Shown piece after piece: positions 12,161 to 58,727 of a stretch of 64,000 nt of DNA. The notes beneath the pieces are model-generated. The model was not told where the DNA came from. It saw nothing but the letters and a program-made list of their open reading frames with translations, and searched no databases. This DNA comes from Candidatus Fermentithermobacillaceae bacterium. Its GTDB lineage: Bacteria; Bacillota; Sulfobacillia; Fermentithermobacillales; Fermentithermobacillaceae. How positions within the stretch are numbered: position 1 is the first letter of the stretch; every line of letters starts with the position of its first letter. The position numbers and the translations under genes are program-made. The stretch spans positions 2,059-66,058 of the forward strand of contig DUSI01000047.1 in NCBI GenBank assembly GCA_012842685.1, given 5' to 3'.

Positions 12161-13171
12161 ATGAGGTCCACCGACGCCCAGACCCTCATAGCCTCCGGAG
12201 ACCTTGAATGTCGGGAGAGGACCGCCACCGGGTACCTCATAGTCGGCGAAGAGGTCTACTGGCACCGGAAGATCATAGATAGCCTCTCCAGGCTCTTCCC
12301 GAACGGGGCCGAGAACCTCTCGGGCGAGGACACGAGCTGGGATTTCCTCAAAGAGAGCCTCGTACAGCCCTCGTTTTTCGGGCCTTCCCTGTGGGTCGTG
12401 AGAGACGCGCAGGTTCTCCTAGAGCGAAAGGAAGCCGCAGGGGTGGATTACATCGCTCCGGGGAACTGCCTTGTCTTGTCGTGCCCGGTGAAAGATAACC
12501 CGGCCAGAAAGGAGTTCTTGGAAGCCTGGGATAGGCTAGGCGGGATAGTAGTAAGCGCGAGCGTACCCTCGTTCACGGAAGCGGTCCGTTGGGTTGAGTC
12601 TTCTCTCCTGAGTGAGAACCTGAGGATTTCCACCGAAGCCGCAGAGCTCCTCGTGAATATTGCCGGGAGGAGCATGGACCGTCTTGAGCAAGAAGTGGCG
12701 AAGATCGCCTTGTACATGGGGCCGGGCGATTCTCCTCCGGTCAGACCGAGGCCTGTGAGCCCAGAGGTTGTCCTGGCCTGTGCCTCTCAAGACCCAGAGA
12801 AGACTGCTTTTGGTTTGGTGGACGCGGTGGCCGGAAAAAACGGTCCCAGGGCAGCGATGGAGCTTCAGGACCTAAAGAGCCGCTCATCAGGACTAGTCCC
12901 TGTTATCTCGCTCCTCGCCTCCCACTTTGCCGTGATGTGGAGAGCCAAGGAAGCCACTCGAGAGGGCGTGTCCCAGGCGGACCTTCCAAGAGTGCTGGGG
13001 GTTCACCCCTACCTGGCCAAGAAAGCCTTGGCCCAGTCCCGCTCCTGGAGTTTTCGGGAACTGGAAGCCGCCTTTCGGCTCCTCCTCGAGGTGGACGAAA
13101 GCCTCAAGACAGGAGCTATGGAGCCGGACCGGGCGATAGACTACCTGCTGGCTAACATCTGCAAGGGATAA
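12161..13171 (+). CDS. holA: DNA polymerase III subunit delta
   Basis: 336 aa. The comEC...holA-rpsT synteny is as in Firmicutes. Helical C-terminal domain. Confidence 0.8.
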   Translation: MRSTDAQTLIASGDLECRERTATGYLIVGEEVYWHRKIIDSLSRLFPNGAENLSGEDTSWDFLKESLVQPSFFGPSLWVVRDAQVLLERKEAAGVDYIAPGNCLVLSCPVKDNPARKEFLEAWDRLGGIVVSASVPSFTEAVRWVESSLLSENLRISTEAAELLVNIAGRSMDRLEQEVAKIALYMGPGDSPPVRPRPVSPEVVLACASQDPEKTAFGLVDAVAGKNGPRAAMELQDLKSRSSGLVPVISLLASHFAVMWRAKEATREGVSQADLPRVLGVHPYLAKKALAQSRSWSFRELEAAFRLLLEVDESLKTGAMEPDRAIDYLLANICKG

Positions 13172-13177
13172 GCAAGA

Positions 13178-13206
13178 CAAAATAGACCGCAAGCGGTCTA
13201 TTTTCT
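13178..13206. terminator. bidirectional rho-independent terminator between convergent holA and rpsT (ATAGACCGCAAGCGGTCTAT hairpin flanked by A- and T-tracts)
   Basis: Perfect 8 bp stem with an A-run upstream and a T-run downstream. Confidence 0.7.
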
Positions 13207-13235
13207 GGAAAACCCGATGGTGAGACTCACATGCC

Positions 13236-13490
13236 CTAGAGCAGTGCGGCCAACCTGGACTTATACCTGGATCCGGTGTTGGGCTTGAGTACGCCCTTGC
13301 TCACGGCCTTGTCTATGGCCTTCTGGGCCATGCGGTAAAGCCGGACCTTTTCTTCCTGATCGGCCGTAGTGGCCGCGGCCTGTCTGAACTTACGGATATA
13401 GGTCCTTACCTGAGACTTTATCGCCTGGTTCCGGCGGCGACGCTTTTCGGATCTCCTGATATCTTTCTCGCTGGACTTTATGTTAGCCAA
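13236..13490 (-). CDS. rpsT: 30S ribosomal protein S20
   Basis: (M)ANIKSSEKDIRRSEKRRRRNQAIKSQVRTYIRKF.... TTG start at 13490 with GGTGGAGGTG RBS. The track ORF extends 11 codons further upstream. Confidence 0.9.
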   Translation of the reverse strand: MANIKSSEKDIRRSEKRRRRNQAIKSQVRTYIRKFRQAAATTADQEEKVRLYRMAQKAIDKAVSKGVLKPNTGSRYKSRLAALL

Positions 13491-13597
13491 AAACGGCACC
13501 TCCACCATTACTACTGACACCACAGAATCTTAACACGCATTGGTTCTGCGGCGCAACAATGGGTGGAGGTGCGTGCACCTTTCCCCGAAAAGCCTTC

Positions 13598-14443
13598 TCA
13601 GGGGCTCAGCTTCTTGAGCTCCTGCATGTAGGTGTCTATCGACTTCACGAACGAAGCGGTTCCCAGCGCGACCTTGCTGCTGTCGCCTCCGGCTGCCTCC
13701 TTGGCTCCCTGGGCCGCCAGAGCGAGATCGGAGATGATGCTTACCGCTCCGGAATGGGCCGCCTTGAGGCCGCTTTCCACTGTCATGCCCTCAAGCTCCG
13801 ACTTCAAAGCAGAAAGCTCCGATTCCATGTTGGAGATCATGACCTGGCTTTCCGTCCCAAGGTATTGGGCATCCCAGAAAGCGAGGAGAGACTGGATGGC
13901 GGTATCGGCTTTGACAAAGGCGTTCTGGATTGCCTCTACTTGCGTCTTCGGCCCGGTTATCGTAAACGACCTGGAAGGGACCTCAGTGGTCGCCACGTAG
14001 AGGGTGTCGCCTGCAGCGACCACGCTGCCTGCCAATTTGGGCTGGGCAGCCTGAGCCAGTTTGTTTGCCGCTTCCTTCGAGCCGGTAATCCCGCAGTATA
14101 CCTTGTAGAGGGGGTCGGGGCTCATGACCGCTGCGCCCACGCCTTTCGCGATGGCTGCCTGGGCGGCCTTTTCTGCGTTCTCCATGGTGGAGAAAGCGCC
14201 GATCTGGACTCTGTAAAGGGTCACGGGCTTGGTCTGGATCTGGACGGTCGTGGTATCAGTGCTTCCCGAAGGCGTCTGGATCTGGCCGCCGCTCACGGGT
14301 TCTCCTCCGGCGGGCCTGTCGAGAAGCGCCGAGAGGAAGTACCTCCCTATAAGGTAACCCGATCCTACGAAGGCGAGGGCGACAAGGACGAATATGAGCT
14401 TGCTGCCAAGGCCCTTGCTTTGGCCCAGACGGGACCTCCGCAC
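13598..14443 (-). CDS. SPOR (sporulation-related repeat) domain membrane protein with an extra C-terminal helical domain
   Basis: N-terminal TM helix. YRVQIGAFSTMENAEKAAQAAIAKGVGAAVM is a SPOR fold signature. GTG start with GAGGAGGTG RBS. Confidence 0.7.
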   Translation of the reverse strand: MRRSRLGQSKGLGSKLIFVLVALAFVGSGYLIGRYFLSALLDRPAGGEPVSGGQIQTPSGSTDTTTVQIQTKPVTLYRVQIGAFSTMENAEKAAQAAIAKGVGAAVMSPDPLYKVYCGITGSKEAANKLAQAAQPKLAGSVVAAGDTLYVATTEVPSRSFTITGPKTQVEAIQNAFVKADTAIQSLLAFWDAQYLGTESQVMISNMESELSALKSELEGMTVESGLKAAHSGAVSIISDLALAAQGAKEAAGGDSSKVALGTASFVKSIDTYMQELKKLSP

Positions 14444-14498
14444 TTCTTCGCACCTCCTCGATACTTGATAAGGGTTCCGACGCAGCTCGATTCAATGT

Positions 14499-15857
14499 TT
14501 ATGTCCCGTTTTGCCGGGTCATACCAAGCTTGGACGATATATAAGTCCTGGCAGATCCCACGAGGTACAGGGAACCTGAGATGAGTAGCATGTCATCCTC
14601 TCCGGTCCTCTTGAGCCCCTCGTCGATGGCCTTGCGGAAATCGGGTTCAACGTCCACAGACCTCACGTAGCGCCTCGCTTCAGAGGCGAGGATTTCCGGA
14701 TCCAGGGCCCTGGGGGTATCGGGCTTTGTCGCGATGATCTCGTCGCAGTGGGGCGCTATGAGGGCCGTGGCTTCTTTGTACGACTTATCTCCCAAGATGC
14801 CGAGGACGCACACGGTCCGCTTCTTGGGGAAACTGGAGAGAGTGTCGCTTAGAGCTTTGGCTCCCTCTGGGTTGTGGGCCCCATCGAGAATTATGAGCGG
14901 TCTCCTGGACATTACCTCCATGCGTCCCGGCCATCTTGTCCTGGCTATCCCGTGTCTAACGGCCGCCCGGTCCAAGCGGAACCTGCCTTCTCTGTTCTTG
15001 GGCTTCCCGACCTCGAGAGCCGCGACGGCGACCGCGGCGTTCTGCTGCTGGTGCCTTCCCAAGAGAGGCACTTGCAGGTTTTCGTAGTGGAAACCCGGTC
15101 CCCGGACGTCAATGACCTGGCCTTCCATGGAGTAGGAGATCTCCTCCCAGGTCACGTCCGCCCGCCTCTTGTCTGATACGGTGAACAGGGGAGAGCCCAG
15201 CTCGCGGGCCCTTTCCTCGATCACCCGGAGCGCCTCGTCGTCGGAAACCCCTGTGACGACGGGCACCCCGGGCTTTATGATGCCTGCCTTTTCCCAGGCG
15301 ATCTTGCCCAGGGTGTCCCCCAGGCGGTCGGTGTGGTCGAAGGAAACGGTAGTGATCACCGACACCGCCGGGATCACGATGTTGGTCGCGTCAAATCTCC
15401 CTCCGAGCCCTACCTCGAGGGCGACGAAATCGCACCCCTCCCGCGCGTAATACAGGAAGGCGAGAGCTGTCACCACTTCAAACTCGGTGGGGTGTTCTTG
15501 GCCCTCACTCAGCATCTGTTCCACGGCCGGTCTCACGACCCCCACCAGTTCCACCAGCTCTTCCCGGGAGATCATCTTGTCTCCGATGCAGATCCTCTCT
15601 CTGAAGTCCTCTAGGTAAGGGGAGATGTACCTTCCTGTCCTGTACCCGTTGGCCGAAAGGGCGGAGGCCACCATGGCGGTCACCGAGCCCTTCCCGTTGG
15701 TCCCCGTCACGTGGATGTATTCTGAACGCCGCTCAGGATTGCCAAGGAGCTCCGCGAGCCTCCTCACGCGGTCCAGGCCGAGCTTGGACCCGAACCTCAT
15801 GGTGCTGTGTATCCAAGCCAGCGCTTCTTCGTAGATTTCGCTTCCTATTCCAACCAT
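14499..15857 (-). CDS. folC: bifunctional folylpolyglutamate synthase / dihydrofolate synthase
   Basis: 452 aa. HVTGTNGKGS P-loop and Mur-ligase-type domains. valS-folC synteny. Confidence 0.9.
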   Translation of the reverse strand: MVGIGSEIYEEALAWIHSTMRFGSKLGLDRVRRLAELLGNPERRSEYIHVTGTNGKGSVTAMVASALSANGYRTGRYISPYLEDFRERICIGDKMISREELVELVGVVRPAVEQMLSEGQEHPTEFEVVTALAFLYYAREGCDFVALEVGLGGRFDATNIVIPAVSVITTVSFDHTDRLGDTLGKIAWEKAGIIKPGVPVVTGVSDDEALRVIEERARELGSPLFTVSDKRRADVTWEEISYSMEGQVIDVRGPGFHYENLQVPLLGRHQQQNAAVAVAALEVGKPKNREGRFRLDRAAVRHGIARTRWPGRMEVMSRRPLIILDGAHNPEGAKALSDTLSSFPKKRTVCVLGILGDKSYKEATALIAPHCDEIIATKPDTPRALDPEILASEARRYVRSVDVEPDFRKAIDEGLKRTGEDDMLLISGSLYLVGSARTYISSKLGMTRQNGT

Positions 15858-15897
15858 TGCCGCATCCTCCCCCGGGAGGGTCCCTCCGGCGGAATTC

Positions 15898-18528
15898 CTA
15901 GTTAACGCGTCTTAGCATGTCTATCCTGGCTCTAAGGGTCTCCAGCTTGGCGGTAGATTCTTCGTACCTCTTTTTCTGGGCTTCGACGATCTCCTTAGGC
16001 GCCTTGGACAGGAAGTCCTCCTGGGATAACCTGGCGCGGGTCCTCTCGATGTCCTTCTCCAGTTCGCCCATGGTCTTCTGGAGCCGCTGGATCTCCTTAT
16101 CGATATCGATCACGCCCTCGAGAGGCAGATACACAGTAGCGCCCTTTGCCACGCTCGCTAGTGCCTTGTGCACGTCCGTGAGTTCCTCCATGTCCCCGAG
16201 GCGCACGGGTTCCGCCCACGCCAGCCTCTGGATGTAGGGGATCATCTTCTCCCAGCGCGCAGGTTCGACCGCTGCGATTATGGCGGGAGCCTTTCTACCG
16301 GTCCCTATATTCACCTCGGCCCTCATGTTCCGGAGCGCTTTGGTCGCCTCGATGAGGGCCTGGGCTTCCTCTTCCGCCTCAGGGTCAAGTTCCCACCGTC
16401 CAGGCGCCGGGTAGGGGTGGATCATCAGGCTGCCTTCCTTGCCAGGCACTCGTCCGGGGAGGTAAGACCACAGCTCTTCTGTTACGAAAGGTATGAACGG
16501 GTGGAGGAGCGCCAGGGAGTCCCTTAGCACCGTCCACAAGACCGCCTGGGTTTCTTCCTTCAGCTCTTCCCGGGACATGTCTTCCTTGGCGATCTCGATA
16601 TACCAGTCGCAGAACTCGTTCCAGACGAAGTCTATGATAAGCCCTATGGCTTCTCCGGGTTCGAAGTTTTCCAGGGCGTCGTTTACGCCTCTTATGGTCC
16701 GCTCAAGGCGAGAGAGGATCCACCGGCCCGCGAACCCCTTGGGCGAGACTTTCTCCGGGGGACTAAAGTCTTCGAGGTTGGCTAGGCAGAACCTCGCCGC
16801 GTTCCAGAGTTTGTTCACGAAGTTCCTGGCCCCTTCAACCTTCTCGTCGTAGAGGCGCATGTCGTTGCCCATGGCTGTCCCCGCGATCAAGGAGATGCGC
16901 AAGGCGTCGGCCCCGAACTTGTCGATGACCTCAAGGGGGTCTATTCCGTTCCCCAGGCTCTTGGACATCTTCCGTCCAAGGGCGTCCCTGACTATCCCGT
17001 GGATAACCACCGTGTGGAACGGCTCTCTCCCGGTGAACTCCAGTGACGAGAAGATCATCCGGGCTACCCAGAAGAAGATGATGTCGTAGCCGGACACCAG
17101 GACGTCGGTGGGGAAGAAGTAATCGAGGTCAGCGGTCTTCTCGGGCCATCCCATGGTGGAGAAGGGCCAGAGCGCCGAGGAGAACCACGTATCCAGCACG
17201 TCTTCGTCTTGCCTCAACGCGCCGCCGCAGTCCGGGCAGGATTTCGGTTCTTCTCTCGCTACTATCGTCTTCCCGCACGAATCGCAGTACCAAGCAGGGA
17301 TCCTGTGGCCCCACCAGAGCTGCCTCGAGATGCACCAGTCGCGGACGTTTTCCATCCAGTTCAAGTAGATCTTTGTGAAGCGCTCGGGGACGAACCTGAC
17401 TTTCCCTTCGCGCACCGCCTTGATGGCGGGCTCGGCCAGGGGCTTCATCCTCACGAACCATTGCTCGGATATCAGGGGTTCAACGTTTGTGTCGCACCTG
17501 TGGCAGCGTCCGATGGAGAGCTTGTAGGGCTCGGTCTTAACGAGGAAGTCGCCTTCTTCGAGGTCCTTGAGCAGTGCTTTCCTGCATTCATAGCGGTCCA
17601 TACCCTCGTACTTGCCCGCGGCAGACGTCATCTTGGCATGGGTGTCTATCACGGTTACGAATTCGAGGCCGTGGATCTTGCCCATTTCGAAGTCGTCGGG
17701 GTCGTGGGCGGGCGTTACCTTCACCGCCCCGGTCCCGAAGGAAGGATCCACGCGGTCGTCGGCGAAAATCGGGAGTCTCCTCCCGATGATGGGAAGGATA
17801 GCGTGTCTCCCGATGAGATGGGAATACCGCTTGTCATCCGGGTTCACGGCGATCCCGGTATCTCCCAACATGGTCTCGGGCCTGGTCGTGGCCACTACCA
17901 CGTACTCATCTGAGCCTTCCAGAGGATAGCGGATGTACCACAGGAACGAGTCCACATCCTCGTGTTCCACTTCGATGTCGGAGATAACAGTGTGACAGCT
18001 GGGGCAGAAGTTCACCATGTAGTTTCCTTTGTAGATGAGCCCCTTCTCATAGAGCCTCACGAATACCTCAGTAACCGCTCTTGAGCAGCCTTCGTCCATC
18101 GTGAAACGCTCACGAGACCAGTCGCAGGAGGCCCCCAGGCTCTTTATCTGGTCGGTTATGATGTTCCCGTATTTCCTCTTCCAATCCCAGGCCCTCTCCA
18201 GGAACTTCTCGCGGCCGAGCTCCAGCCTGGATGTACCCTCTGATTCGAGCATCTCCTCTATTTTCGCGTGGGTGGCTATGGAAGCGTGGTCGGTCCCGGG
18301 CAGCCAGAGGGTCTCCCGCCCCGACATCCTCATGTGGCGGATTATTGTGTCTTGAATGGTGAGATCCAAGGCGTGTCCTATGTGGAGCGACCCGGTGATG
18401 TTGGGAGGGGGCATGACCAGGGAGAACTTTGGCTTTTGGGATCCAGCCTCCGCCTTGAAGAGATCGTTTTCCATCCAGTAACGGTACCATTTTTCTTCGA
18501 AAGACTTGGGTTCGTAGGCTTTGGGCAT
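15898..18528 (-). CDS. valS: valine--tRNA ligase
   Basis: HIGH motif PPPNITGSLHIGHAL, KMSKS motif, C-terminal coiled coil. The start was set to ATG at 18528 (MPKAYEPKSFEEKWY) with GAAGGAG RBS. The track ORF starts 28 codons upstream, inside the T-box terminator. Confidence 0.95.
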   Translation of the reverse strand: MPKAYEPKSFEEKWYRYWMENDLFKAEAGSQKPKFSLVMPPPNITGSLHIGHALDLTIQDTIIRHMRMSGRETLWLPGTDHASIATHAKIEEMLESEGTSRLELGREKFLERAWDWKRKYGNIITDQIKSLGASCDWSRERFTMDEGCSRAVTEVFVRLYEKGLIYKGNYMVNFCPSCHTVISDIEVEHEDVDSFLWYIRYPLEGSDEYVVVATTRPETMLGDTGIAVNPDDKRYSHLIGRHAILPIIGRRLPIFADDRVDPSFGTGAVKVTPAHDPDDFEMGKIHGLEFVTVIDTHAKMTSAAGKYEGMDRYECRKALLKDLEEGDFLVKTEPYKLSIGRCHRCDTNVEPLISEQWFVRMKPLAEPAIKAVREGKVRFVPERFTKIYLNWMENVRDWCISRQLWWGHRIPAWYCDSCGKTIVAREEPKSCPDCGGALRQDEDVLDTWFSSALWPFSTMGWPEKTADLDYFFPTDVLVSGYDIIFFWVARMIFSSLEFTGREPFHTVVIHGIVRDALGRKMSKSLGNGIDPLEVIDKFGADALRISLIAGTAMGNDMRLYDEKVEGARNFVNKLWNAARFCLANLEDFSPPEKVSPKGFAGRWILSRLERTIRGVNDALENFEPGEAIGLIIDFVWNEFCDWYIEIAKEDMSREELKEETQAVLWTVLRDSLALLHPFIPFVTEELWSYLPGRVPGKEGSLMIHPYPAPGRWELDPEAEEEAQALIEATKALRNMRAEVNIGTGRKAPAIIAAVEPARWEKMIPYIQRLAWAEPVRLGDMEELTDVHKALASVAKGATVYLPLEGVIDIDKEIQRLQKTMGELEKDIERTRARLSQEDFLSKAPKEIVEAQKKRYEESTAKLETLRARIDMLRRVN

Positions 18529-18540
18529 CTCCTTCAACAC

Positions 18541-18862
18541 CGCACATTCACCTCGCGTCATAGTTATGGCCCCTTCACCACAAGGGCGAAGGGGCCTCGT
18601 TCGCGGTACCACCTTGCTTCCGGTAGGGACGCACGGCGCTTGCTTTACATCCCCAGACGCTCAAACGACCATAAACCCGCATCCTTGGGGCCTATCCTAC
18701 CGGCACTCTCGGCCTTAACGCGGCCACGCGCACGGGCGTTTCCGCCCGCGTCCTCAGGGGCGACCTTCGGCAGTCTCTTCCCGCAGGGCTCCCACCATAT
18801 GCCCCGCTCTCTGAGGGAGAACCTCTGCCTACTCCTCCCCGTCATCGGATTTCCCTACTAGT
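18541..18862 (-). promoter_or_regulatory. T-box riboswitch leader of valS (probable GUC Val specifier; antiterminator AAGGUGGUACCGCG; terminator hairpin)
   Basis: The - strand carries the conserved T-box AAGGTGGTACCGCGA (UGGU bulge matching a discriminator A), an AGAGA K-turn motif, and a candidate specifier loop ...CCGAAGGUCGCC.... It ends in a GGCCCCTTC...GAAGGGGCC hairpin just before the valS RBS. Confidence 0.85.
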
Positions 18863-18869
18863 TGGCTGT

Positions 18870-18898
18870 ATTATAGCAAGGAGACCTCCCAGGGTAAA
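18870..18898 (-). promoter_or_regulatory. candidate promoter of the valS T-box leader (-35 TTTACC, 17 bp spacer, extended -10 TGCTATAAT)
   Basis: Read on the - strand: GCTTTACCctgggaggtctccttgcTATAAT. Confidence 0.55.
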
Positions 18899-18956
18899 GC
18901 AACCCTTAATCGTCCTTCTAGTACTTACGAAGGAAAAAGAGGGAGGCTTTTCCGTA

Positions 18957-20163
18957 GTGAGGATATTGCCAATCTACAGCGTACAGCCGGGAATGCGTCT
19001 GGGCCGGTCAGTGCTGGATCAAGATGGCCGGCTCATCGTAGCTGCAGGGGTTACGCTGACGAGGCGTCTCCTCACTTTGCTCGAAGAACAGGGCTATACC
19101 GCGGTGTACATAGCCGACGGCTTCGACGACGTTGAGCTCCCCGAAGTGGTGCGCCTCGAGACCAAACACGAGGTCATAAAGAGCATAAGACAGTTCGTCG
19201 AGTCCGAGGCCCTTTACGACAAGCGGCTGGCAATGTCGCTTACGTATAGAGGCGGACCTCCCGCCCCCAATATGGTCAGCAAGGCCAGATATGATGCGTG
19301 CCTGAGTATAGTCAGGGCGGCCGAGATGCTTGTCACCGACATTTTGTCCCAGACAGAAGTAATAATCGGCATGGTAGATATAAAATCCCTGCACGACTAC
19401 AGTTTTGCCCACGCGGTCAACGTCGCCCTGATATCCCTAGTAGTTGGCAGGATGATGGGGTATGGGAAGAGGGAACTCAGGGAACTCGGGATCGGAGCCC
19501 TCCTTCACGATATAGGCAAGACCGCCGTCTCGAGCTCCATTTGGCTAAAGCCCTAGGGCCTTACGAGAGAGGAGTTCGAAATAGTCAGGGATCACCCCGT
19601 GGAGGGATTTGAGATATTGAGGAAGACTTCCCTCGGCCTCCTTCCGGCCCACGTGGCTTACCAGCACCATGAGCGCTGGGACGGGAGCGGCTACCCCCGA
19701 GGTCTCCGCGGCGAAAACATCCTCGCTTACGCAAGGATCACGGCCGTGTGCGACGTATTTGACGCCATGACGTCCGACCGTCCCTACAAAGGCGAGGCAT
19801 CCCCTGGAAGCCCTCTCGTTCATCGTGCAAAACTCGGGCGTTTTCTTTGACCCGAAGGTAGTAGGCGCGTTTTCTCGGGTGGTGGCTCCTTTTCCCGTCG
19901 CCACAGGGGTAATACTCTCAACGAACGAGACCGCGGTGGTGAAGAGCCTCAACCCTCACGATCTGGAAAGGCCGGTAGTCGCGGTAACCAAAGACCCCGA
20001 TGGGAATTACTACCCCAGCCCCAGAACAATAGATCTCGTACTCCACCCCGAGATACAGATAGTAAGCTACGCCGAATGGTACACGGCTCCCAACATAGAC
20101 GAGATGTTGGCGATGAGCGGCATCCTCGCGGGACCTTCGGACAGGAAGATCTCCTCCGGCTAG
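18957..20163 (+). pseudogene. HD-GYP domain phosphodiesterase (c-di-GMP), disrupted by an in-frame TAG at 19554-19556 and a +/-1 frameshift near 19795-19805
   Basis: Three consecutive track ORFs (18957..19556, 19599..19850, 19825..20163) together encode one HD-GYP protein. Motifs: LLHDIGK, HHERWDGSGYPRGL, DRPYK. The first two ORFs are in the same frame, separated only by TAG (...IWLKP*GLTREEFEIVRDHP...). The third continues in another frame as PLEALSFIVQNSGVFFDPKVV. Confidence 0.65.
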
Positions 20164-20243
20164 CCCCCGGTCATATCACCCCATCTTGACAAGTATCCTT
20201 ATTTGGTGCTGGGTCTTGGTACGCGTTATCCGGGGGTGGTCCG

Positions 20244-21497
20244 GTGAGGCTTGGTCCGGAGGCTGTCTGCCGGGTGTTTCGAGAGAGACCCCGTGTCCTC
20301 CTGAGGGAGACTCTCGGCCATCTGAAAAAGGGCTTGGTTTTCCTCCTGGTGTGCTCCGGATTGGGGGTTGTATCGCTTCTTGCGCCATTTGGAGCCGCCC
20401 GGATGCACGGCGGGATGCCTGCAGGATTTGTCCGGCCGGTCTCCGGGGAAACCGGGTCCGCTCCGAGAACCACACCTCAGGAGGCAGCCTGCCGGATGCT
20501 TCAGGACCGTTTCCGCGTCCTTCTTGACGGCCAGGTGGAAAGCATCAGGGCTAACTACGACACCTCATCCGAGCCGGGCCTCTGGACACTGGAGAGGGAG
20601 GAAGCCCGGGTCAGGTACCTGAGCCAGTGGGCCGGTGAACGCGGCCTCAGCATCGTTGACGTCAAAGCGCGGATAGAGATCGACGGAGTATCGCCCGCGA
20701 ACTCGGGCGGCGTCTGGGTGGAGCTCACGGAGCACGCGCTGTACACGTATGCCCCCAAGCAGGGCGAATGGACTCACACCTTTGGCTCAAGGGCGGTGCA
20801 CGTCATGGAACTTGTGCTTTGCGGGGGCGAGTGGAAGATCCGGCGCGACTGGTACTCTGACCCGCTGGCCGGCGAACACGGACTAGAGCCATGTAAGTTC
20901 CCGGACGGTTGGGATGCCGGCAAGACCCGTGAGGACGGCAATCTCCATGCGTCCCAGGGGTCATTCTCGAACAAGGCGGGGCAATACGACAGGGAGGCTG
21001 CCCTGGAGTACGCCATAAGGTACGCGGGCGTGCCCGCCGTAGAGGGTTCGGGCAGGTATAACCCGGCATACAAGGTTTACACGTTCGCGGGCGGAGACTG
21101 TGCCAACTTCGCGTCTCAAGTGCTCCATGCAGGAGGTCTCAAACAGGGCTACGGGTGGCACTACACGTCGGAGGGGAGCGCCGCGTGGGTTAGAGGAGAA
21201 GACCTGGTCTGGCACCTTCTGTCTACCGGCAGGGCAGAGAGGATATACTCTGGGGATTTTTCGGGGGCAGTAGAACCGACCGCCGAATACCCATACGGGG
21301 CCGTCTCCGTTCTAGAACCCGGCGACCTCATCGCTTATGAAACCAAAGGCCAGATATGCCATGTCGCCGTGGTTGTAGGAAAAGACCCTGCCGGCTACGT
21401 CACAATAGCCAGCCATACGGCAGATAGGCTCTTTTTCCCCTGGGATGTGGGCTGGAACGACACAACCGTGTTTTGGCTCCTGAAGATCGTGTACTAG
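20244..21497 (+). CDS. putative amidase-domain (NlpC/P60-like, Amidase_6-type) protein with N-terminal TM segment
   Basis: C-terminal ...YNPAYKVYTFAGGDCANFASQVLHAGG...GDLIAYETKGQICHVAVVVG... is the putative-amidase-domain signature with a catalytic Cys. The start is uncertain (GTG at 20244 or ATG near 20400). Confidence 0.7.
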   Translation: MRLGPEAVCRVFRERPRVLLRETLGHLKKGLVFLLVCSGLGVVSLLAPFGAARMHGGMPAGFVRPVSGETGSAPRTTPQEAACRMLQDRFRVLLDGQVESIRANYDTSSEPGLWTLEREEARVRYLSQWAGERGLSIVDVKARIEIDGVSPANSGGVWVELTEHALYTYAPKQGEWTHTFGSRAVHVMELVLCGGEWKIRRDWYSDPLAGEHGLEPCKFPDGWDAGKTREDGNLHASQGSFSNKAGQYDREAALEYAIRYAGVPAVEGSGRYNPAYKVYTFAGGDCANFASQVLHAGGLKQGYGWHYTSEGSAAWVRGEDLVWHLLSTGRAERIYSGDFSGAVEPTAEYPYGAVSVLEPGDLIAYETKGQICHVAVVVGKDPAGYVTIASHTADRLFFPWDVGWNDTTVFWLLKIVY

Positions 21498-22759
21498 AGG
21501 TTGTCTGCCGTACTGTAGCGGTTCCCGCCGTCTACCTTGGCCAGGTACATCGCCTTGTCGGCCAAGCGTACCAGATCGCGCCCGCTCGTGGAGTGCTTGG
21601 GGAAGGAAGCCAGGCCGGCGCTTATTCCGAAATCCACCCTGACGCCTTGTACCTTCAGTGGGTTCTGCCCCAGATCCTCCAGGACCTTGTCCATCATCCC
21701 GGCGGCCCCAGAGAGATCCGTGCCGATGCATATCACTATGAACTCGTCTCCACCGTAGCGGATGACCTTGTCGCAGGACCGGGCGGCCGATTTTAGGATC
21801 TTCGCGAGGTGCTGGAGGACCATGTCGCCCACGTCGTGCCCCATCCGGTCGTTTACGCTCTTCAGGCCGTCTACGTCGATAAACACGATGGAACACGTAT
21901 CCTGTTCGGGAGACAGCTTCCCAAAATCGTTCTCCAGCCATCTTTCGAGGTAACGTACGTTCAGGAGGCCGGTAAGCGCGTCGGTGTTAGCTTCCTTCGA
22001 CTTGATCTCCAGCTCCTGCTCAAACTTGAGCTGGAGCCAGAGGACGAATATCGACGCGAACACGAAGATTATGCCCGCGAGGCCCATGTATGTGGCGAGA
22101 AGGACGCCTGCCATGTTTATGAGGTACGAGAGGGCGAATGTCTTCCGCCTCTGCGTAAACCACAGCCTGAGGAACACCTCGCGCCACTTGTGTTCCTGGT
22201 CAAGGGCCACGGCGGTCGAAACGAACGTGTAGTTGGCCAGCTCAAAAGTCAGGACTAAGAGGAACACAAGCATGAGCTGGTGTATCGGTAATCGCCCCGC
22301 TGGGGTGAGCCTGGCAATCCTGGCCCAGACGCTTGCCACGACGAGGCTCAAAGTAAACTGTGAGGCGTTGAAAATGGTGTTCAAAATGGCCTTTTTCTGC
22401 GTCACGAGCTGGGTCATCACGGCCGATACCAGGCTTATCACACTGAGCCGGGGGCCAAAGGTCCAGAGTGCCGCATAGACCACCGGATCTGCCAGAGCTA
22501 TGCTGTTGCCGTCGGGAAATCTCACGGACAGGTGCTGCCCTACTACGGCGAGGCCAAGGTACACGATGGTTGTCCATGTGTCCGGGAAGGCGCCCTGTTT
22601 GACGACATACAGGAACGCCCCGCACCCGGCGACGGAAACGGCTATCATATACCCGGCGATGGCCCGTATGTTCTTACCAGTGCCGTATATTTGTAACCAT
22701 CTGTTCAACCCTTGGCACCTCTCAGCCGGCGTAGTGCGCGCCCTCAAAAACCCGCCCAA
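21494..22759 (-). CDS. diguanylate cyclase (GGDEF) with N-terminal polytopic membrane sensor domain
   Basis: C-terminal LTGLLNVRYLE...RYGGDEFIVI... is an intact GGDEF active site. About 6 TM helices N-terminal. The start may be the internal ATG (MIAVSV..., near 22648). Confidence 0.85.
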   Translation of the reverse strand: MGGFLRARTTPAERCQGLNRWLQIYGTGKNIRAIAGYMIAVSVAGCGAFLYVVKQGAFPDTWTTIVYLGLAVVGQHLSVRFPDGNSIALADPVVYAALWTFGPRLSVISLVSAVMTQLVTQKKAILNTIFNASQFTLSLVVASVWARIARLTPAGRLPIHQLMLVFLLVLTFELANYTFVSTAVALDQEHKWREVFLRLWFTQRRKTFALSYLINMAGVLLATYMGLAGIIFVFASIFVLWLQLKFEQELEIKSKEANTDALTGLLNVRYLERWLENDFGKLSPEQDTCSIVFIDVDGLKSVNDRMGHDVGDMVLQHLAKILKSAARSCDKVIRYGGDEFIVICIGTDLSGAAGMMDKVLEDLGQNPLKVQGVRVDFGISAGLASFPKHSTSGRDLVRLADKAMYLAKVDGGNRYSTADNL

Positions 22760-22805
22760 TGATATATCGACTTCACGCTAGTCCGAATAAAGCCTCTATC
22801 TGCAT

Positions 22806-22832
22806 AAAAACAAAAACCGCTCTACGCGGTGC
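22806..22832 (-). terminator. rho-independent terminator of the tRNA operon (ACCGCGTAGAGCGGT hairpin + TTTTTGTTTTT on the - strand)
   Basis: Inverted repeat and T-run read on the - strand, directly downstream of tRNA-Glu. Confidence 0.7.
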
Positions 22833-22894
22833 GTCTTGATAGCGGAACGAGGGCGGCATTGCGCCTTCGGGAGCTGCCAGGGCCTTGAATGAGA

Positions 22895-22970
22895 TGGTGG
22901 CCCCAACGGGACTCGAACCCGTGTTACCGCCTTGAAAGGGCGGTGTCTTAGACCTCTTGACCATGGGGCC
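22895..22970 (-). tRNA. tRNA-Glu (anticodon TTC), CCA encoded
   Basis: Reverse complement GGCCCCATGGTCAAGAGGTCTAAGACACCGCCCTTTCAAGGCGGTAACACGGGTTCGAGTCCCGTTGGGGCCACCA folds as a cloverleaf with anticodon loop CTTTCAA. Confidence 0.9.
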
Positions 22971-22983
22971 ACTTCAACTAAAT

Positions 22984-23058
22984 TGGTGCGCCCGGGGTGC
23001 ATCGAACACCCGACCAATCGGTTATGAGCCGACCGCTCTGCCACTGAGCTACGGGCGC
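22984..23058 (-). tRNA. tRNA-Met (anticodon CAT; elongator-type, could alternatively be lysidine tRNA-Ile2), CCA encoded
   Basis: Reverse complement GCGCCCGTAGCTCAGTGGCAGAGCGGTCGGCTCATAACCGATTGGTCGGGTGTTCGATGCACCCCGGGCGCACCA. G1-C72 pair present, so it is not an initiator. Confidence 0.85.
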
Positions 23059-23066
23059 ACACATTT

Positions 23067-23141
23067 TGGCTCCCCGAGTAGGATTCGAACCTACAACCCT
23101 CCGGTTAACAGCCGGATGCTCTACCGTTGAGCTATCGAGGA
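23067..23141 (-). tRNA. tRNA-Asn (anticodon GTT), CCA encoded
   Basis: Reverse complement TCCTCGATAGCTCAACGGTAGAGCATCCGGCTGTTAACCGGAGGGTTGTAGGTTCGAATCCTACTCGGGGAGCCA. Anticodon loop CTGTTAA. Confidence 0.9.
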
Positions 23142-24874: not shown

Positions 24875-24940
24875 TTGACACTTCTCCTTGTCCGGTGCTA
24901 TTTTTCATCTAGGTTAGCACTCTCGGGAGCAGAGTGCTAA
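24875..24940 (+). promoter_or_regulatory. hrcA operon control region: -35 TTGACA (24875-24880), weak -10, and a perfect CIRCE TTAGCACTC-N9-GAGTGCTAA (24914-24940)
   Basis: Second perfect CIRCE in the window, followed by AGGAGG and the GTG of hrcA. Confidence 0.9.
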
Positions 24941-24957
24941 AGGAGGGGAGGCGGGAC

Positions 24958-25977
24958 GTGACTCTCGACGAAAGAAAGGCTCGCGTTTTGCGAGCAGTCG
25001 TAGAGGAGTACATCGAGACCGGCATGCCGGTGGGCTCGCGAGTGATCGCCAAACGGTACCGGTTGGGAGTAAGCCCCGCGACCATCAGAAACGAAATGGC
25101 CGACCTCGAAGATACAGGCTATCTCGATAAGCCCCACACTTCTTCAGGACGCGTCCCTTCCGACAGGGGATACCGGTTCTACGTTGACGAACTCATGCCC
25201 AAGAAAAAGCTCACCGCCGACGAATCCAGGGCTATCGAATCCTTGTTCCGGACAAAGATGCGAGACGTCGTCTCTTTTCTCCGGGAAGTCGTGAGGGTGG
25301 TGTCTGAGACTTCCCATTACCTCGGGTTCGTGCTGGGACCCGACTGCGAGTCCGTGACGTTCAGGAGCATCCATATCCTCCCCGCGTCTTCAGAGAAAGC
25401 CCTGCTCGTGCTCATAACCGATATAGGCTTCGTGGAGACGTGCCTCATAGAGAGCGATGTCCCCAGCGAGGAACTCGCCGGGATTTCCGAGATGCTCTCC
25501 CGAAACCTTACCGGAGTGACCATGGACCGGGTTGCCGACAAGGCGTACAGCCTACTGAAGGAAGAAACGTCCAGGTACGCCATGATCGTAGACCAGGTCG
25601 TAGAGTTTTTGCGGAGCGTCACGATGTCGGAAGGCGAGAGGCTCTATGTGGGAAGCCCGGTGAACCTCTTGAACCTACCCGAGTTTAGGGATGTGGAACG
25701 GCTCAAGGGAGTCATGGCGGCCATCGAGTCAAACGGCATCCTCAAAGCCATCCTCACGAGGTCCCACGACGAGACCAGTCCGACCATCCGGATAGGAGTC
25801 GAGAACGAGGACGAGTCGATAAGGGATATTTCCATGGTCTACGGGACGTTCAGCGCTGGGTCCACCGAAGGAAAGGTCGGCATCTTGGGACCCAAGCGGA
25901 TGGACTACTCCAAGGCCGTTGCCATAGTCAGCATGCTTGAAGACAGGCTCTCCGGCTATTTCGCCAGGAACAGGTAG
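24958..25977 (+). CDS. hrcA: heat-inducible transcription repressor HrcA
   Basis: (V)TLDERKARVLRAVVEEYIETGMPVGSRVIAKRY... is the canonical HrcA N-terminus. GTG at 24958 lies 11 nt after AGGAGG. The track start (24934) lies inside CIRCE. Confidence 0.9.
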   Translation: MTLDERKARVLRAVVEEYIETGMPVGSRVIAKRYRLGVSPATIRNEMADLEDTGYLDKPHTSSGRVPSDRGYRFYVDELMPKKKLTADESRAIESLFRTKMRDVVSFLREVVRVVSETSHYLGFVLGPDCESVTFRSIHILPASSEKALLVLITDIGFVETCLIESDVPSEELAGISEMLSRNLTGVTMDRVADKAYSLLKEETSRYAMIVDQVVEFLRSVTMSEGERLYVGSPVNLLNLPEFRDVERLKGVMAAIESNGILKAILTRSHDETSPTIRIGVENEDESIRDISMVYGTFSAGSTEGKVGILGPKRMDYSKAVAIVSMLEDRLSGYFARNR

Positions 25978-26039
25978 GCCGGAAAGCGCCGGGTGACCAA
26001 GGCCCCGGACCCGATACTCGAAGTACTTAGGAGGGACTC

Positions 26040-27623
26040 ATGTTGACTCTAAAGGGCCACGCGGCAGAAGCTTCCGAGATCAACGAGAAACTCGCGGCAC
26101 TCCTCACCAACGCTAACGCGGTGCGGGCCATCGCCTCGGCGGTTGAGGGTACGATCGGGCCCAAAGGCCTCGATACCCTTCTGGTCGACCGGTTCGGCGA
26201 GGTCGTCATAACCAACGACGGGATGACCATCCTCACCAAGATGGATGTGAACCATCCCGCGGCCAAGATGGTCATCAACACCGCCAAAGCCCAGGAAGAC
26301 GAAGTCGGTGACGGCACCACGACGGCCACCATCATGGCCGGCGCCCTTCTCACGGAAGGGGTGAACCAGGCGGCGCGCGGCGTGCCGGTGACCCGGATCA
26401 TCGACGGCGTGCGCCAGGGGATCCAGAAGGCAATTGAGATCGTGTCCGAAAGGGCGATCAAGATAAACGACGTGGATGACCCCATGCTTTACCAGGTCGC
26501 CCTGGTGGCAGGCCGGGACAACAGGGACATAGCGGAACTCGTGGTCAAGGCGGCCAAAATGGTCGGCAAGGAGAAACTCCTCGACCCGCGCTTTAAGCTT
26601 TCCGAGACCATCGTGGCCAAGGAAGGCGCGGAAAACGAGGTTTTCGCAGGGATAATCATTGACAAGAAGCGCCTCAATGAGGAGATGCCCGAATCCCTGG
26701 ATGAACCCAAGATCCTGGTGGTCGACGACGCCCTCGAACCCGAAGAGGTAGAGGAAGAAGCCCTCTCCACCGAAGTGGGATTCCAGAGGTACCTTGAACT
26801 CCAGGAAGAGTTCAAGGCCAACCTGGACAAAGTGGTAAAGATGGGCGTGCGGTTTATAGTTGTCGACAAGGGGATCTCCGATATCGCCGAAGAGATGCTG
26901 ACCGACGCCGGAGTGATGGTGGTCACCAGGGTGTCTTCCGGTGAGCTCCGCAAGGTTTGCGAGCACACGGGCGCCCGCGCCATAAAGAGGACCGGGCTAA
27001 AGAAGTCGCCCGAGGAGCTTGCCAAGTACCTGGGCGGGGCTGAGAAGGTCTACGAGGACCAGAAGCTCGAGAACGTAAGGATACTGGGCGGAAATGGGAA
27101 GCCCATGGCGACCATCCTGGTGGGCGCGACTACGGGGGAAGTGAGAGGCGAAAGGGAGCGTATCTGCACCGACGCGGCGTCATCGGTCCAGGCTGCCATA
27201 AAAGGCGGCGTAGTGCCGGGAGGCGGCGCCATCGAGCTGGCGTGCGCCCGAGAAGTAGAAAAGATGCGGCTCGGCCAGAAGGGCATGCAGGCCTACGGCC
27301 TTCTCTGCGTAGTTGAGGCTCTGAAGCGGCCGCTGGCACAGATCGTTGCCAACGCGGGGTTTAACCCCCTTGAGAAAGTCGGCGACGCCATGGCGAAGCA
27401 GACAGAAGAAAACAGCGACCGGCTGGCCGTCGATTGCGACACCGGAGAGATAGTGGACATGGTGGATATAGGTGTCATAGACCCGGCGCCGGTCAAGACC
27501 CATGCCCTCAAGGCCGCCATGGAGATCGCTTGCGCGATTCTCAGGATCGACACCATCATCAAGAAGAAAGAGGAAGGACCAGAACCTTCCCAGGGTGACT
27601 CGGCGGAGGATATGGACTTTTGA
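26040..27623 (+). CDS. archaeal-type (group II / 'group III') chaperonin, thermosome/CCT family, encoded inside the hrcA-dnaJ operon
   Basis: 527 aa. [65 protein letters not shown] and ...[11 protein letters not shown]... match thermosome/TCP-1 signatures, not GroEL. No GGM tail. AGGAGGG RBS 5 nt before the ATG. Confidence 0.9.
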
Positions 27624-28792
27624 GGAAGGACTACTATGAGATACTCGGCGTTCCCAAGAACGCCACCCAAGAAGAGATAAAGAGGGCCTTCAGGCAGCTC
27701 GCTAAGAAGCACCATCCCGATGCCAACCCGGGAGACAAAGAGGCCGAGGCGCGTTTCAAAGAGATAAACGAGGCCTACGAGGTGCTCTCTGACCCCCAGA
27801 AGCGGGCCAACTACGATGCCTACGGACATCCGGACGGGCCCTTCGCCGGCGGGGCAGGGGGTTCTGCGGGCGGCGGCCGGACGGCCGGCGATCCTTTTGG
27901 CAGGGTCTTTGGGGATTTCGGCGGCTTCCCGTTCGGAGACCTCTTCGAGGGGTTCGAGGAGATCTTCGGCGGGGGCAGGAGGCAGGCCGATACCGGACCC
28001 CGCAGGGGTGACGACCTCGAGCTGGAGCTGGACATAACCCTGGAAGAAGCCTTTACGGGCGTGGAGCGCGACATAAGGATCCCGCGGACCGAGAGGTGCC
28101 CGAGGTGCCAGGGAAGCGGCGCCGAGCCGGGGACCGAGACAAAGACGTGTCCTACCTGCCACGGGAGCGGACAGGTGAGGACCACGAGGGTTACCATGCT
28201 GGGCTCCTTCGTGACGATCACCACGTGTTCAAGGTGCGGCGGCACCGGCAAAGTCGTCGAGAAGCCATGCCGGGAATGCGGCGGTAGGGGCGACGTCTCC
28301 AGGACCAAGACAGTCACAGTCACTGTGCCGCCCGGGGCAGATTCGGGACTCAGGCTCAGGCTCCAGGGACAGGGTAACGCCGGCGTAAGGGGCGGCCCTC
28401 CGGGGGACCTATATGTAGTCGTGTTTGTAAGGCCCCACGAGCGTTTCCAGCGCCAAGGGGATGACCTCATACTCGACCAGGTAGTGAGTTTCCCTCTCGC
28501 GGCCATAGGTGGAACCGTGACGGTCAAGGGTATAGACGGAGAGTTCGAGATGGACGTGCCCGCCGGGACCCAGCCGGGGGCGGTCCTCAGGCTCAGAGGC
28601 AAGGGTATGCCGCGCCTCAGGTCCAAAGGAAGAGGCGACATGCTGGTCAGGGTTAACGTGAGGGTCCCCACCAAGCTTACGAACCGGGAAAAAGAGATCT
28701 TGAAGCAGATCGGAAAGCTGGACGGAGAGACCTTCGCCGATACGAGGTCGTTTTTCGACAAGCTGAGAGGGGCTGACGGAGGGTCCAAGTGA
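27620..28792 (+). CDS. dnaJ: molecular chaperone DnaJ (type I: J domain, G/F region, four CxxCxGxG zinc fingers)
   Basis: (M)[33 protein letters not shown]...; [35 protein letters not shown] start overlapping the chaperonin stop. Confidence 0.92.
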
Positions 28793-29544
28793 GCAAGAAC
28801 CAGAGCCATACCCCGCCCCTATATTTCGTCGATCCCTCCATGGTTTTGGGGAGCCAGATCGTCCTTACCGGGGACGCCTACCGGCACGCCCTGGCCCAGC
28901 GGCTCTCGCCGGGTGAAGTTTTCAGGGCCGTCTTGGGCGAGACCGAGTATACCGCGGAAGTCGAGGGGATCCTTCCGGGAAAACTCGTGGCGTCCATCAC
29001 CGGCCGTGTGCGCGTAAGCCCGCCGCCCGTCAGGATCCACCTTTACGCAGCCCTGCTTAAGCACCAGAATCTGGACCTCGTGGTGGAGAAGGCCACGGAG
29101 CTCGGTGTTTCCTCTTTCACGCCCATCGTGACCGCGAGGACCATACCGCGGCTCAGTCCGGAAAAAGCGGCTGCGAGGCGGGAGCGCTGGATAAGGGTTG
29201 CAAAGGCTGCCGCCGAGCAATCGGGCAGGGGGACGCTCCCCGATGTCCGCGACGTGAGCACCCTCGAACAGATCCTCGACCGGGGGGTGCCTGGCGTGCG
29301 TCTCCTCGCCCACGAGCACGAAGGGCTAACGGTGCCCATCGGCGTGGCGACCCGGGGACACGCCGAAGCTTCCATCATCGTGGGGCCCGAAGGCGGCCTG
29401 GATGCCTCTGAGGTAGAGATGGTCCTTTCGAAAGGCTTCACGCCCGTCTCTCTCGGCCCATACATCCTGAAGGCCGAGACCGCAGGGATAGCCGCGGTGG
29501 CGGTGCTTATGAGCTTCATGTCGGCCGGTTCTACGGAGAGGTAG
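28789..29544 (+). CDS. rsmE: 16S rRNA (uracil1498-N3)-methyltransferase RsmE
   Basis: 251 aa. PUA-like N-terminus and SPOUT domain. Position after dnaJ matches Firmicutes synteny. Confidence 0.85.
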
Positions 29545-57509: not shown

Positions 57510-58103
57510 TTGCGGCAAGCAGGCAGAAAAACATCCGGGGTGAGTGACTTGCTGAATCGCGATGAAATCGTGGCCGAAGTGCAGAAACGGATCAAGACGA
57601 AGAACCTCTTCAAGCACATTTTGGCAGTGGAAGCCGTCATGAGGCGCATTGCCCGGGAGCTTGGTGAGGACGAAGACAGATGGGGAGCCGCGGGGCTTCT
57701 TCATGACATCGACTATGAAGAGACAAAAGATGATCCTCACCACCACAGCATAGTATCCGGTCAGATAGCCGAAGAGCTCGGTTTCGACCCGGAGATAGTG
57801 GACGCGGTCAAGGCCCACAACGAAATCCACGGTTTCCCCAGGGATACGCTCATGGCCAAAGTCCTTTACTCGGCAGACCCGCTCACGGGGCTCATAGTCG
57901 CGGCGGCGCTCATATCGCCCGAGAAAAAGCTCTCCGCCATCGACGTGGATTTCGTCATAAACAGGATGAAAGAGAAATCCTTTGCAAGAGGGGCCAACCG
58001 TGATATCATCAGGGCTTGCTCCGATTTCGGCATGAGCCTCGAGCGCTTTATCGAGCTGGGTCTAGAGGCCATGCAGGGTATACACGAAGAGCTCGGGTTG
58101 TAA
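57510..58103 (+). CDS. HD-domain (HDIG-type) metal-dependent phosphohydrolase
   Basis: ...KHILAVEAVMRRIARELGEDEDRWGAAGLLHDIDYE... is an H...HD motif. The start may be a few codons downstream of the track start. Confidence 0.75.
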   Translation: MRQAGRKTSGVSDLLNRDEIVAEVQKRIKTKNLFKHILAVEAVMRRIARELGEDEDRWGAAGLLHDIDYEETKDDPHHHSIVSGQIAEELGFDPEIVDAVKAHNEIHGFPRDTLMAKVLYSADPLTGLIVAAALISPEKKLSAIDVDFVINRMKEKSFARGANRDIIRACSDFGMSLERFIELGLEAMQGIHEELGL

Positions 58104-58139
58104 GAAAGCGGCAGGCGGAGCAGAAAGGGGGCGTGGGGA

Positions 58140-58610
58140 GTGGCCAAATCGAGCGGCATCAAGATAATCGCCCAGAACAGGAGGGCCCGCCACGACTATT
58201 TCATCGAGGACGTCATCGAGGCCGGCATAGCCCTCATCGGGACCGAGGTGAAGTCCCTGAGGCAGGGCAGGGCCAGCCTGAGCGATGCCTACGCGGAGGT
58301 AGTCGGAGGAGAGGTTTTCCTCCGAAACGCCCACATTGCCCAGTACGAGCCCGCCTCCAGGTTCAACCACGATCCCCTGCGGCCGAGGAGGCTCCTCCTG
58401 CACAAGAGAGAGATCAGGAAACTCGCGGCGAAAGTGGCGGAAAGGGGGTACACCCTCATCCCTCTTTCCTTATATTTCAGGGATGGCAAAGCCAAGGTCG
58501 AACTGGCCCTGGCGAAGGGGCGGAAGAGCTACGATAAGCGCGAGGCCATCCGCGAACGGGATATCAGGCGGGATATGGACAGGAAACTCAGAGAACGGCG
58601 AGACGGGTAA
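58140..58610 (+). CDS. smpB: SsrA-binding protein SmpB
   Basis: ...IAQNRRARHDYFIEDVIEAGIALIGTEVKSLRQGRASLSDAYA... is the canonical SmpB. Confidence 0.93.
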   Translation: MAKSSGIKIIAQNRRARHDYFIEDVIEAGIALIGTEVKSLRQGRASLSDAYAEVVGGEVFLRNAHIAQYEPASRFNHDPLRPRRLLLHKREIRKLAAKVAERGYTLIPLSLYFRDGKAKVELALAKGRKSYDKREAIRERDIRRDMDRKLRERRDG

Positions 58611-58661
58611 AGGGTATCCGTAGGGGTATCCCGTCGCCTGAGCATATTGACTCGAAAGTCA

Positions 58662-58703
58662 GGGAGCCGCGGATATTACCTGCGGCTCCCTTGTCTTGTT
58701 CTT
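58662..58703. terminator. bidirectional terminator between smpB and the convergent lipoprotein gene (GGGAGCCGC-N11-GCGGCTCCC + TTGTCTTGTTCTT)
   Basis: Perfect 9 bp inverted repeat with a T-rich tract on the + strand. A small palindrome TGACTTTCGAGTCA lies on the other side. Confidence 0.65.
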
Positions 58704-58727
58704 CCAGGGCTTACTCCGCTATTCGCC

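Follow-up and report, generated by a model that had tools for sequence, protein, structure and literature searches.

A probable strain-level pseudogene of an HD-GYP cyclic-dinucleotide phosphodiesterase in a digester-associated Candidatus Fermentithermobacillaceae species

Introduction

The described systems closest to the locus studied here are phosphodiesterases of the HD-GYP family. PmGH, the c-di-GMP phosphodiesterase of Persephonella marina (PDB 4MCW), holds its metals through residues which we take to be H189, H221/D222, H250, H276/H277 and D305 (chain offset of 6), with Glu185 as the ligand of a third metal. The same HD-GYP fold is found in PA4781 (4R8Z), which has a bimetallic centre, and in c-di-GMP-bound DvhD (9RBZ), and these proteins carry REC or PAS input domains. 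V-cGAP3 of Vibrio cholerae (5Z7C) is built from tandem HD-GYP modules and is specific for 3'3'-cGAMP.

We analyzed a stretch of 64,000 nucleotides (the window) from a Candidatus Fermentithermobacillaceae bacterium, apparently taken from a metagenome-assembled genome (MAG). This family belongs to DTU015, a class of Bacillota that was described from a coal-fire MAG and has close relatives in thermophilic anaerobic digesters (PMC10215811). A first-pass annotation, made from the sequence alone, had read three consecutive open reading frames (ORFs) at 18957..20163 as a single HD-GYP gene with two independent lesions, and suggested a decaying pseudogene. Here we compare the locus with conspecific assemblies, orthologues and structures of related enzymes, and find that the gene, which belongs to a cytoplasmic HD-GYP cyclic-dinucleotide phosphodiesterase with a most probable specificity for c-di-GMP, is very probably a strain-level pseudogene segregating in a digester species of this family.

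Materials and methods

The window was aligned at the nucleotide level with contigs encoding the intact protein P0001 and its 297-aa relative P0005, and with 19 other assemblies in all (20 including the window; L001-L004 and L085-L099). Alleles were typed by k-mers and by a SNP table of the 20 assemblies, and all lesion evidence was drawn from assembled consensus contigs. Over the region used for comparison (12957..23100), conspecific assemblies match the window at 99.86% identity or more. The structure of the intact allele was modeled with AlphaFold2 on 58 homologues and searched with Foldseek.

Results

Three open reading frames form one HD-GYP gene

Three-frame translation of 18957..20163 places the ORFs 18957..19556 and 19599..19850 in one frame, with TAG at 19554-19556 between them, while the ORF 19825..20163 carries the same protein on in the +1 frame, just as the first-pass annotation had proposed. 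Past the TAG, frame 0 reads GLTREEFEIVRDHP...HHERWDGSGYP...DRPYKGEASPGSPLVHRAKLGRFL up to a stop at 19848-19850, and the +1 frame reads ...KARHPLEALSFIVQNSGVFFDPKVV... up to a stop at 20161-20163. When both interruptions are repaired, the resulting 402-aa protein matches Pfam HD_5 (PF13487) with an E-value of 4.5e-28 (98.5 bits against a cut-off of 27.2, covering profile positions 13-170 of 170) and Pfam HD with 6.1e-17. A protein search with this translation matched thousands of HD-GYP proteins, the best being an intact 401-aa protein with 99% identity over 100% of the length (E = 2.6e-258). Because the HD_5 match and the full-length match to an intact protein are far beyond chance, the three ORFs are one gene. 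Except for the two lesions, the repaired translation equals P0136, the 402-aa product of the intact allele.

The gene lies on the plus strand and spans 1207 nt in the window, compared with 1209 nt in the intact allele. A ribosome-binding site, GGGAGG (18941..18946), is located 10 nt upstream of the GTG start at 18957 and is the same in all alleles; no variable site was found between 18347 and 19361 among the 20 assemblies, so the ribosome-binding site and the region upstream are unchanged. The middle fragment (19599..19850, plus strand) includes H213, HHERWDGSGYP and D266; its last 19 residues (GEASPGSPLVHRAKLGRFL) are read out of frame. The remainder in the +1 frame (19792..20163, plus strand) corresponds to residues 280-402 of the intact protein, comprising the last two helices of the HD-GYP domain and a C-terminal beta domain. 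In the public MAG record the gene is split into HHY76348.1, a 'hypothetical protein' of 199 aa, and HHY76349.1 (identical to P0130), an 'HD domain-containing protein' of 83 aa that is the middle fragment. These two entries should be merged and marked as a pseudogene.

The ancestral enzyme resembles structurally characterized HD-GYP phosphodiesterases

Metal ligands expected of the family are present in the intact allele as H152, H184-D185, H213, H237-H238 and D266. Together with G245-Y246-P247, they are invariant in the 12 closest orthologues; in the set of 58 homologues eight of these ten residues are invariant, and H238 and G245 nearly so (at least 90%). The GYP motif itself, HHERWDGSGYP at residues 237-247, fits the pattern HHExxDGxGYP. 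The AlphaFold2 model of the intact allele (pLDDT 89.5, pTM 0.88) has an N-terminal alpha/beta part followed by two long helices, catalytic helices reaching to residue 309, and a five-stranded C-terminal beta domain at residues 318-372, for which no Pfam match was found. Foldseek matched the model with a probability of 1.00 to 4MCW, 4R8Z, 3TM8 and 9RBZ, with PmGH, PA4781, Bd1817 and c-di-GMP-bound DvhD as the best structural matches.

PmGH is the top Foldseek match and aligns in sequence with residues 151-308 of the intact allele (E = 8e-35). Equivalents of all the PmGH ligands that we presume above, and of the GYP motif, are present. In contrast to PmGH, the protein has a different N-terminal domain and an additional C-terminal beta domain, and the window copy is interrupted. 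The position of the third-metal ligand Glu185 of PmGH is occupied by Tyr148, four positions before H152, which hints that the ancestral enzyme more likely had a bimetallic centre, as seen in PA4781. DvhD superposes on the model with an rmsd of 1.8-2.0 Å over about 160 columns (1.8 Å over 161) at 32% identity. PA4781 and DvhD have REC or PAS input domains; the family studied here instead pairs an uncharacterised N-terminal domain with the C-terminal beta domain.

Among PDB sequences, the protein matches a cGAMP enzyme about as strongly as it does a c-di-GMP enzyme, with V-cGAP3 as the best match (2.5e-36). Unlike V-cGAP3, whose HD-GYP modules are in tandem, the locus carries no pointer to cGAMP, and its conserved neighbor is a GGDEF cyclase. 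On this indirect basis the substrate was most probably c-di-GMP.

A two-nucleotide deletion and a nonsense mutation interrupt the gene

Between the window and the contigs encoding P0001 and P0005, only three sites differ within the gene: 19555, the junction 19791|19792, and 19935-19937. At 19555 the window and six further contigs (L085-L090) have A while the 13 other assemblies have C, so that codon 200 (19554..19556, plus strand) is TAG in place of TCG (S200). The second interruption is a deletion of two nucleotides, CC, after Lys278 at junction 19791..19792 (plus strand), where the window reads AAAG|GCGAGG and the intact allele reads AAAGCCGCGAGG (K278-A-A-R-H-P). Reading is thereby shifted to the +1 frame, and frame 0 runs into the stop at 19848-19850. 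The first-pass annotation had attributed this frameshift to a slip of one nucleotide in a C4 run around 19795-19805. That location has to be revised, as the CC deletion is the sole indel around the suspected frameshift in the alignment of the window with the 19 other assemblies, the C4 run (19801-19804) lies 10 nt downstream of the junction and is identical in all 20 assemblies, and the true downstream frame resumes already at ARHPLEAL and not at PLEAL. The deleted CC, at the site AAAG-CC-GCG, is outside any homopolymer or repeat tract.

The TAG was also noted to sit inside a palindrome. It does lie within CCCTAGGG, in the wider context GCCCTAGGGC, but we rejected any meaning for the palindrome, since it arose with the C-to-A change itself; the ancestral sequence, CCCTCGGG, has no such symmetry.

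The two lesions differ in what they take from the protein. With the TAG, all of the protein past residue 199 is lost; this part holds four of the seven metal ligands and also the GYP motif, which is encoded beyond the stop at about 19665-19697. In the window the ligands are split over two separate ORFs. The frameshift, mapped onto the model of the intact allele, costs the protein helices 283-292 and 300-309 together with the beta domain. An unbroken frame giving the whole catalytic domain, which would mark a functional family member, is interrupted in the window copy by the TAG at codon 200 and by the deletion after codon 278; this copy is a pseudogene of the HD-GYP family, not a functional member.

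Intact, frameshifted and doubly broken alleles occur in the species

That the gene is broken, that its lesions recur among assemblies and that they are nested can be read directly from the contigs. The intact allele (P0136, 402 aa) was found on 13 contigs, including one in NCBI GCA_029782375.1, and an otherwise intact allele with one valine missing (P0001, 401 aa) on three. The CC deletion alone, giving a 297-aa product, is present in L003 and L004 (SRR20950112 and SRR35946771) and in ENA and JGI cluster members. The deletion together with the TAG, giving a 199-aa product, is present in the window and in L085-L090, which come from five other runs, although related reactors or overlapping data may lie behind some of the assemblies, and the independent observations may therefore be fewer than the runs. 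The exact 199-aa product of the first ORF is recorded on eight contigs, among them a 135-kb contig of ENA ERZ925057 (DRR066655, 'biogas fermenter metagenome') and Logan assemblies of DRR066655, SRR18360460, SRR18360461, SRR3654270 and SRR31359994; it is also NCBI HHY76348.1, and its cluster has NCBI, ENA and JGI members. In total, 16 contigs are intact and about 15 are broken. Runs with an intact state include SRR25434697, SRR25434700, SRR29782973-80 and SRR31923776-91. A scan of JGI metagenome contigs with an exact pattern across the deletion site gave no match, and a protein scan of the same contigs gave only other species (at most 80% identity) and no further conspecific alleles.

None of the 20 assemblies has the TAG without the deletion. 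Because of this nesting, the frameshift most likely preceded the nonsense mutation, which would have struck an already dead gene. The first-pass reading of a decaying pseudogene is thus borne out by the recurrence of both lesions in independent public assemblies, by the intermediate deletion-only allele and by intact conspecific alleles.

Smaller changes were also observed. The 401-aa allele (L001 and L002) lacks the GGT of a GTGGTG repeat (V328/V329; 19935..19937, plus strand) that is present in the window and in orthologues. V329 is invariant in the 58 homologues and falls within a predicted strand of the AlphaFold2 model, and the valine loss in this 'intact' allele may be a further, independent impairment. 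On broken backgrounds we found the singleton substitutions R14C (P0131), R222S (P0134) and K75Q (P0132), the first two at residues invariant among the closest orthologues; with three substitutions only, they fit relaxed constraint.

Orthologues and the gene neighborhood are conserved

In the comparison with related genomes that had been proposed with the original reading, orthologues with 79, 69 and 59% identity have uninterrupted genes in a syntenic setting. Three MAG orthologues from Candidatus Fermentithermobacillaceae (NLA60789.1, HHY45417.1 and MGI6662296.1), labelled 'HD-GYP domain-containing protein', are 74-79% identical over the full length and are intact at 404 aa, in contrast to the window copy with its 2-nt deletion and TAG. 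A scan of a genome collection with the general peptide patterns QHHERWDG and GALLHDIGK returned, among the matches listed, only distant HD-GYP genes (at most 38% identity).

In the window, the HD-GYP gene adjoins valS (15898..18540, minus strand), which is transcribed divergently. Downstream are an Amidase_6 gene (20244..21497, plus strand) and a gene for a 404-aa membrane GGDEF diguanylate cyclase with an RxxD I-site (21494..22708, minus strand), which is convergent with the HD-GYP and Amidase_6 genes. The GGDEF gene, described as intact in the first-pass annotation, is so indeed, matching TIGR00254 with 7.4e-44 and carrying RSCD-x5-GGDEF in its sequence. The orthologue P0003 (79% identity) has the same valS / HD-GYP / Amidase_6 / GGDEF context. 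Relatives retain the valS / HD-GYP / GGDEF neighborhood, and the HD-GYP and GGDEF genes stay together also in cases of an inverted block or of a different gene in the middle. Since the neighborhood of these two genes is conserved in relatives, it is plausible that they formed a functional phosphodiesterase and cyclase pair and that strains with a broken allele have lost the c-di-GMP-degrading partner, as had been suggested from the window alone.

Some further variation was seen around the GGDEF gene. L095 and L097 (SRR29782973 and SRR29782976), which carry the intact HD-GYP allele, have a 23-nt insertion (TGTTCAACCCTTGGCACCTCTCA) at the equivalent of window position 22701, just inside the 5' end of the GGDEF gene, which is still called at 404 aa. 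Two substitutions in this gene, at 21647 and 22134, are private to the window among the 20 assemblies; one is synonymous (Q354) and the other is conservative and located in the membrane part (Ala192, Val elsewhere). The record FZPS01000141.1 (L100) has 1,595,018 bp and another gene context in one collection and is a 3,859-bp contig in another; this is probably an artefact of record naming or concatenation, and the odd context of L100 is probably not to be trusted.

Other features of the window

The leader of valS contains a T-box (18579-18854, minus strand; Rfam RF00230, 104.7 bits). A 66-aa ORF at 18645..18845 that is called in several assemblies falls wholly inside this leader and is probably spurious. 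Scanning for promoters and terminators gave nothing on the plus strand above shuffled expectation; the sole promoter-like site, at 18898-18870 on the minus strand, fits the valS T-box leader. A same-strand chain of ORFs at 57510..60113, ahead of the tmRNA, was considered as a second broken gene and rejected, as it consists of an HD-domain protein, SmpB and a minus-strand beta-propeller protein. Elsewhere, at 24934..29544 (plus strand), hrcA (24934..25977) is followed by a 527-aa chaperonin of the Cpn60_TCP1 family (26040..27623), dnaJ (27620..28792) and rsmE (28789..29544), which puts an archaeal-type chaperonin at the usual grpE-dnaK place of Firmicute hrcA operons; a relative at 69% identity (L102) has the same order. 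A literature search on the run and project accessions found no paper, and the sample metadata consist of the ENA name 'biogas fermenter metagenome'.

Discussion

The intact alleles suggest how the gene probably decayed. The ancestral 402-aa protein begins with an N-terminal alpha/beta and coiled region; the HD-GYP catalytic domain follows at about residues 140-308, and a small beta domain forms the C terminus. The 2-bp deletion after Lys278, which arose in one lineage, took away this C-terminal domain entirely, together with the final two helices of the catalytic domain, and on this broken background a C-to-A change most likely then turned Ser200 (TCG) into TAG. The longest product now has 199 aa and keeps only H152 and H184/D185. 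Because H213, H237/H238, D266 and the GYP motif are gone, such a product should not be able to act as a phosphodiesterase; from these missing ligands we infer a loss of activity, with the local balance presumably moved towards the neighboring intact GGDEF cyclase.

Could the gene nevertheless be whole in the organism, or its product restored? MAG assemblies such as the apparent source of the window may carry consensus errors, yet we consider it highly improbable that the lesions are sequencing or assembly errors, given that contigs of five other runs, processed by different pipelines, share both the A at 19555 and the 2-nt deletion, with ENA and NCBI records concurring. The position of the deletion outside a homopolymer also speaks against error, and a codon-usage-based gene map of the whole window has no other split gene in 64 kb. 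A full-length protein could in principle be made by recoding, with the TAG read as pyrrolysine or read through and a programmed +1 frameshift downstream, for example a slip of tRNA-Lys from AAA to AAG at 19788-19791. The AAA_G sequence does permit such re-pairing, which would give PYK-ARHPLEAL, one residue short of the ancestral sequence, and the ribosome-binding site and upstream region are unaltered. Recoding is nonetheless very hard to credit when both the TAG and the shift are recent polymorphisms, missing from sister strains and all orthologues. The idea that TAG might encode pyrrolysine, raised as doubtful in the first-pass annotation, can be dismissed: 13 conspecific assemblies have TCG (Ser) at the site, orthologues have Gly, Asp or Ser there, and TAG is the commonest stop in the window (59.5% G+C), ending 22 of the 55 predicted genes against 17 for TAA and 16 for TGA. 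ARAGORN identified only tRNA-Glu, tRNA-Met, tRNA-Asn and tmRNA in the 64-kb window, and no tRNA-Pyl. As for a frameshift of the prfB-like +1 or dnaX-like -1 kind, the shift is absent from all orthologues and from the 13 + 3 conspecific contigs, and the site shows no stimulator (no upstream SD-like element, stop codon or rare codon); changes at otherwise invariant residues moreover pile up on the broken backgrounds. Reversible phase variation of the phosphodiesterase by slippage at a simple repeat would account for intact and frameshifted alleles coexisting in one species, but it too has next to no likelihood, for the deleted CC is not in a repeat tract, each assembly has one allele with the alleles tracking run series, and the added nonsense mutation could not be reversed by slippage.

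A different question is whether the loss was favored, which would refine the pseudogene reading and not replace it. Inactivation may raise c-di-GMP, for example promoting aggregation in digesters, and selection may have favored broken alleles, with recombination contributing to their spread. This one gene has taken as many as three separate hits (CC deletion, TAG and loss of one of V328/V329), the rest of 12957..23100 has only about a dozen SNPs, and the broken allele appears in several unrelated run series. The allele with both TAG and deletion also occurs on at least two flanking SNP backgrounds: position 18347 or 19361 against 19555 shows all four combinations among L001-L004 and L085-L099. 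This four-gamete pattern could reflect recombination within the species, but recurrent mutation or chimeric metagenome contigs could produce it as well. A TAG nested on the frameshift is what neutral decay predicts, and the intact allele is at least as common as the broken ones. Adaptive loss is thus unlikely, and we would rate slightly lower still the chance that inactivation of this gene has been repeatedly selected in a nearly clonal digester species, with the dead allele perhaps moved between backgrounds by recombination. If true, this would be a gene-specific sweep of a loss-of-function allele, with c-di-GMP tuned upwards in engineered anaerobic ecosystems.

The pseudogene reading, by comparison, describes an ordinary polymorphic pseudogene of a well-known enzyme family and leaves current understanding unchallenged. 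If the enzyme partnered the adjacent GGDEF cyclase, c-di-GMP levels should be higher in strains that carry the broken allele. Across public digester metagenomes, the intact, frameshifted, and frameshifted and nonsense-mutated states line up as successive steps of gene decay in the uncultured class DTU015, and they provide a ready strain marker for the species.
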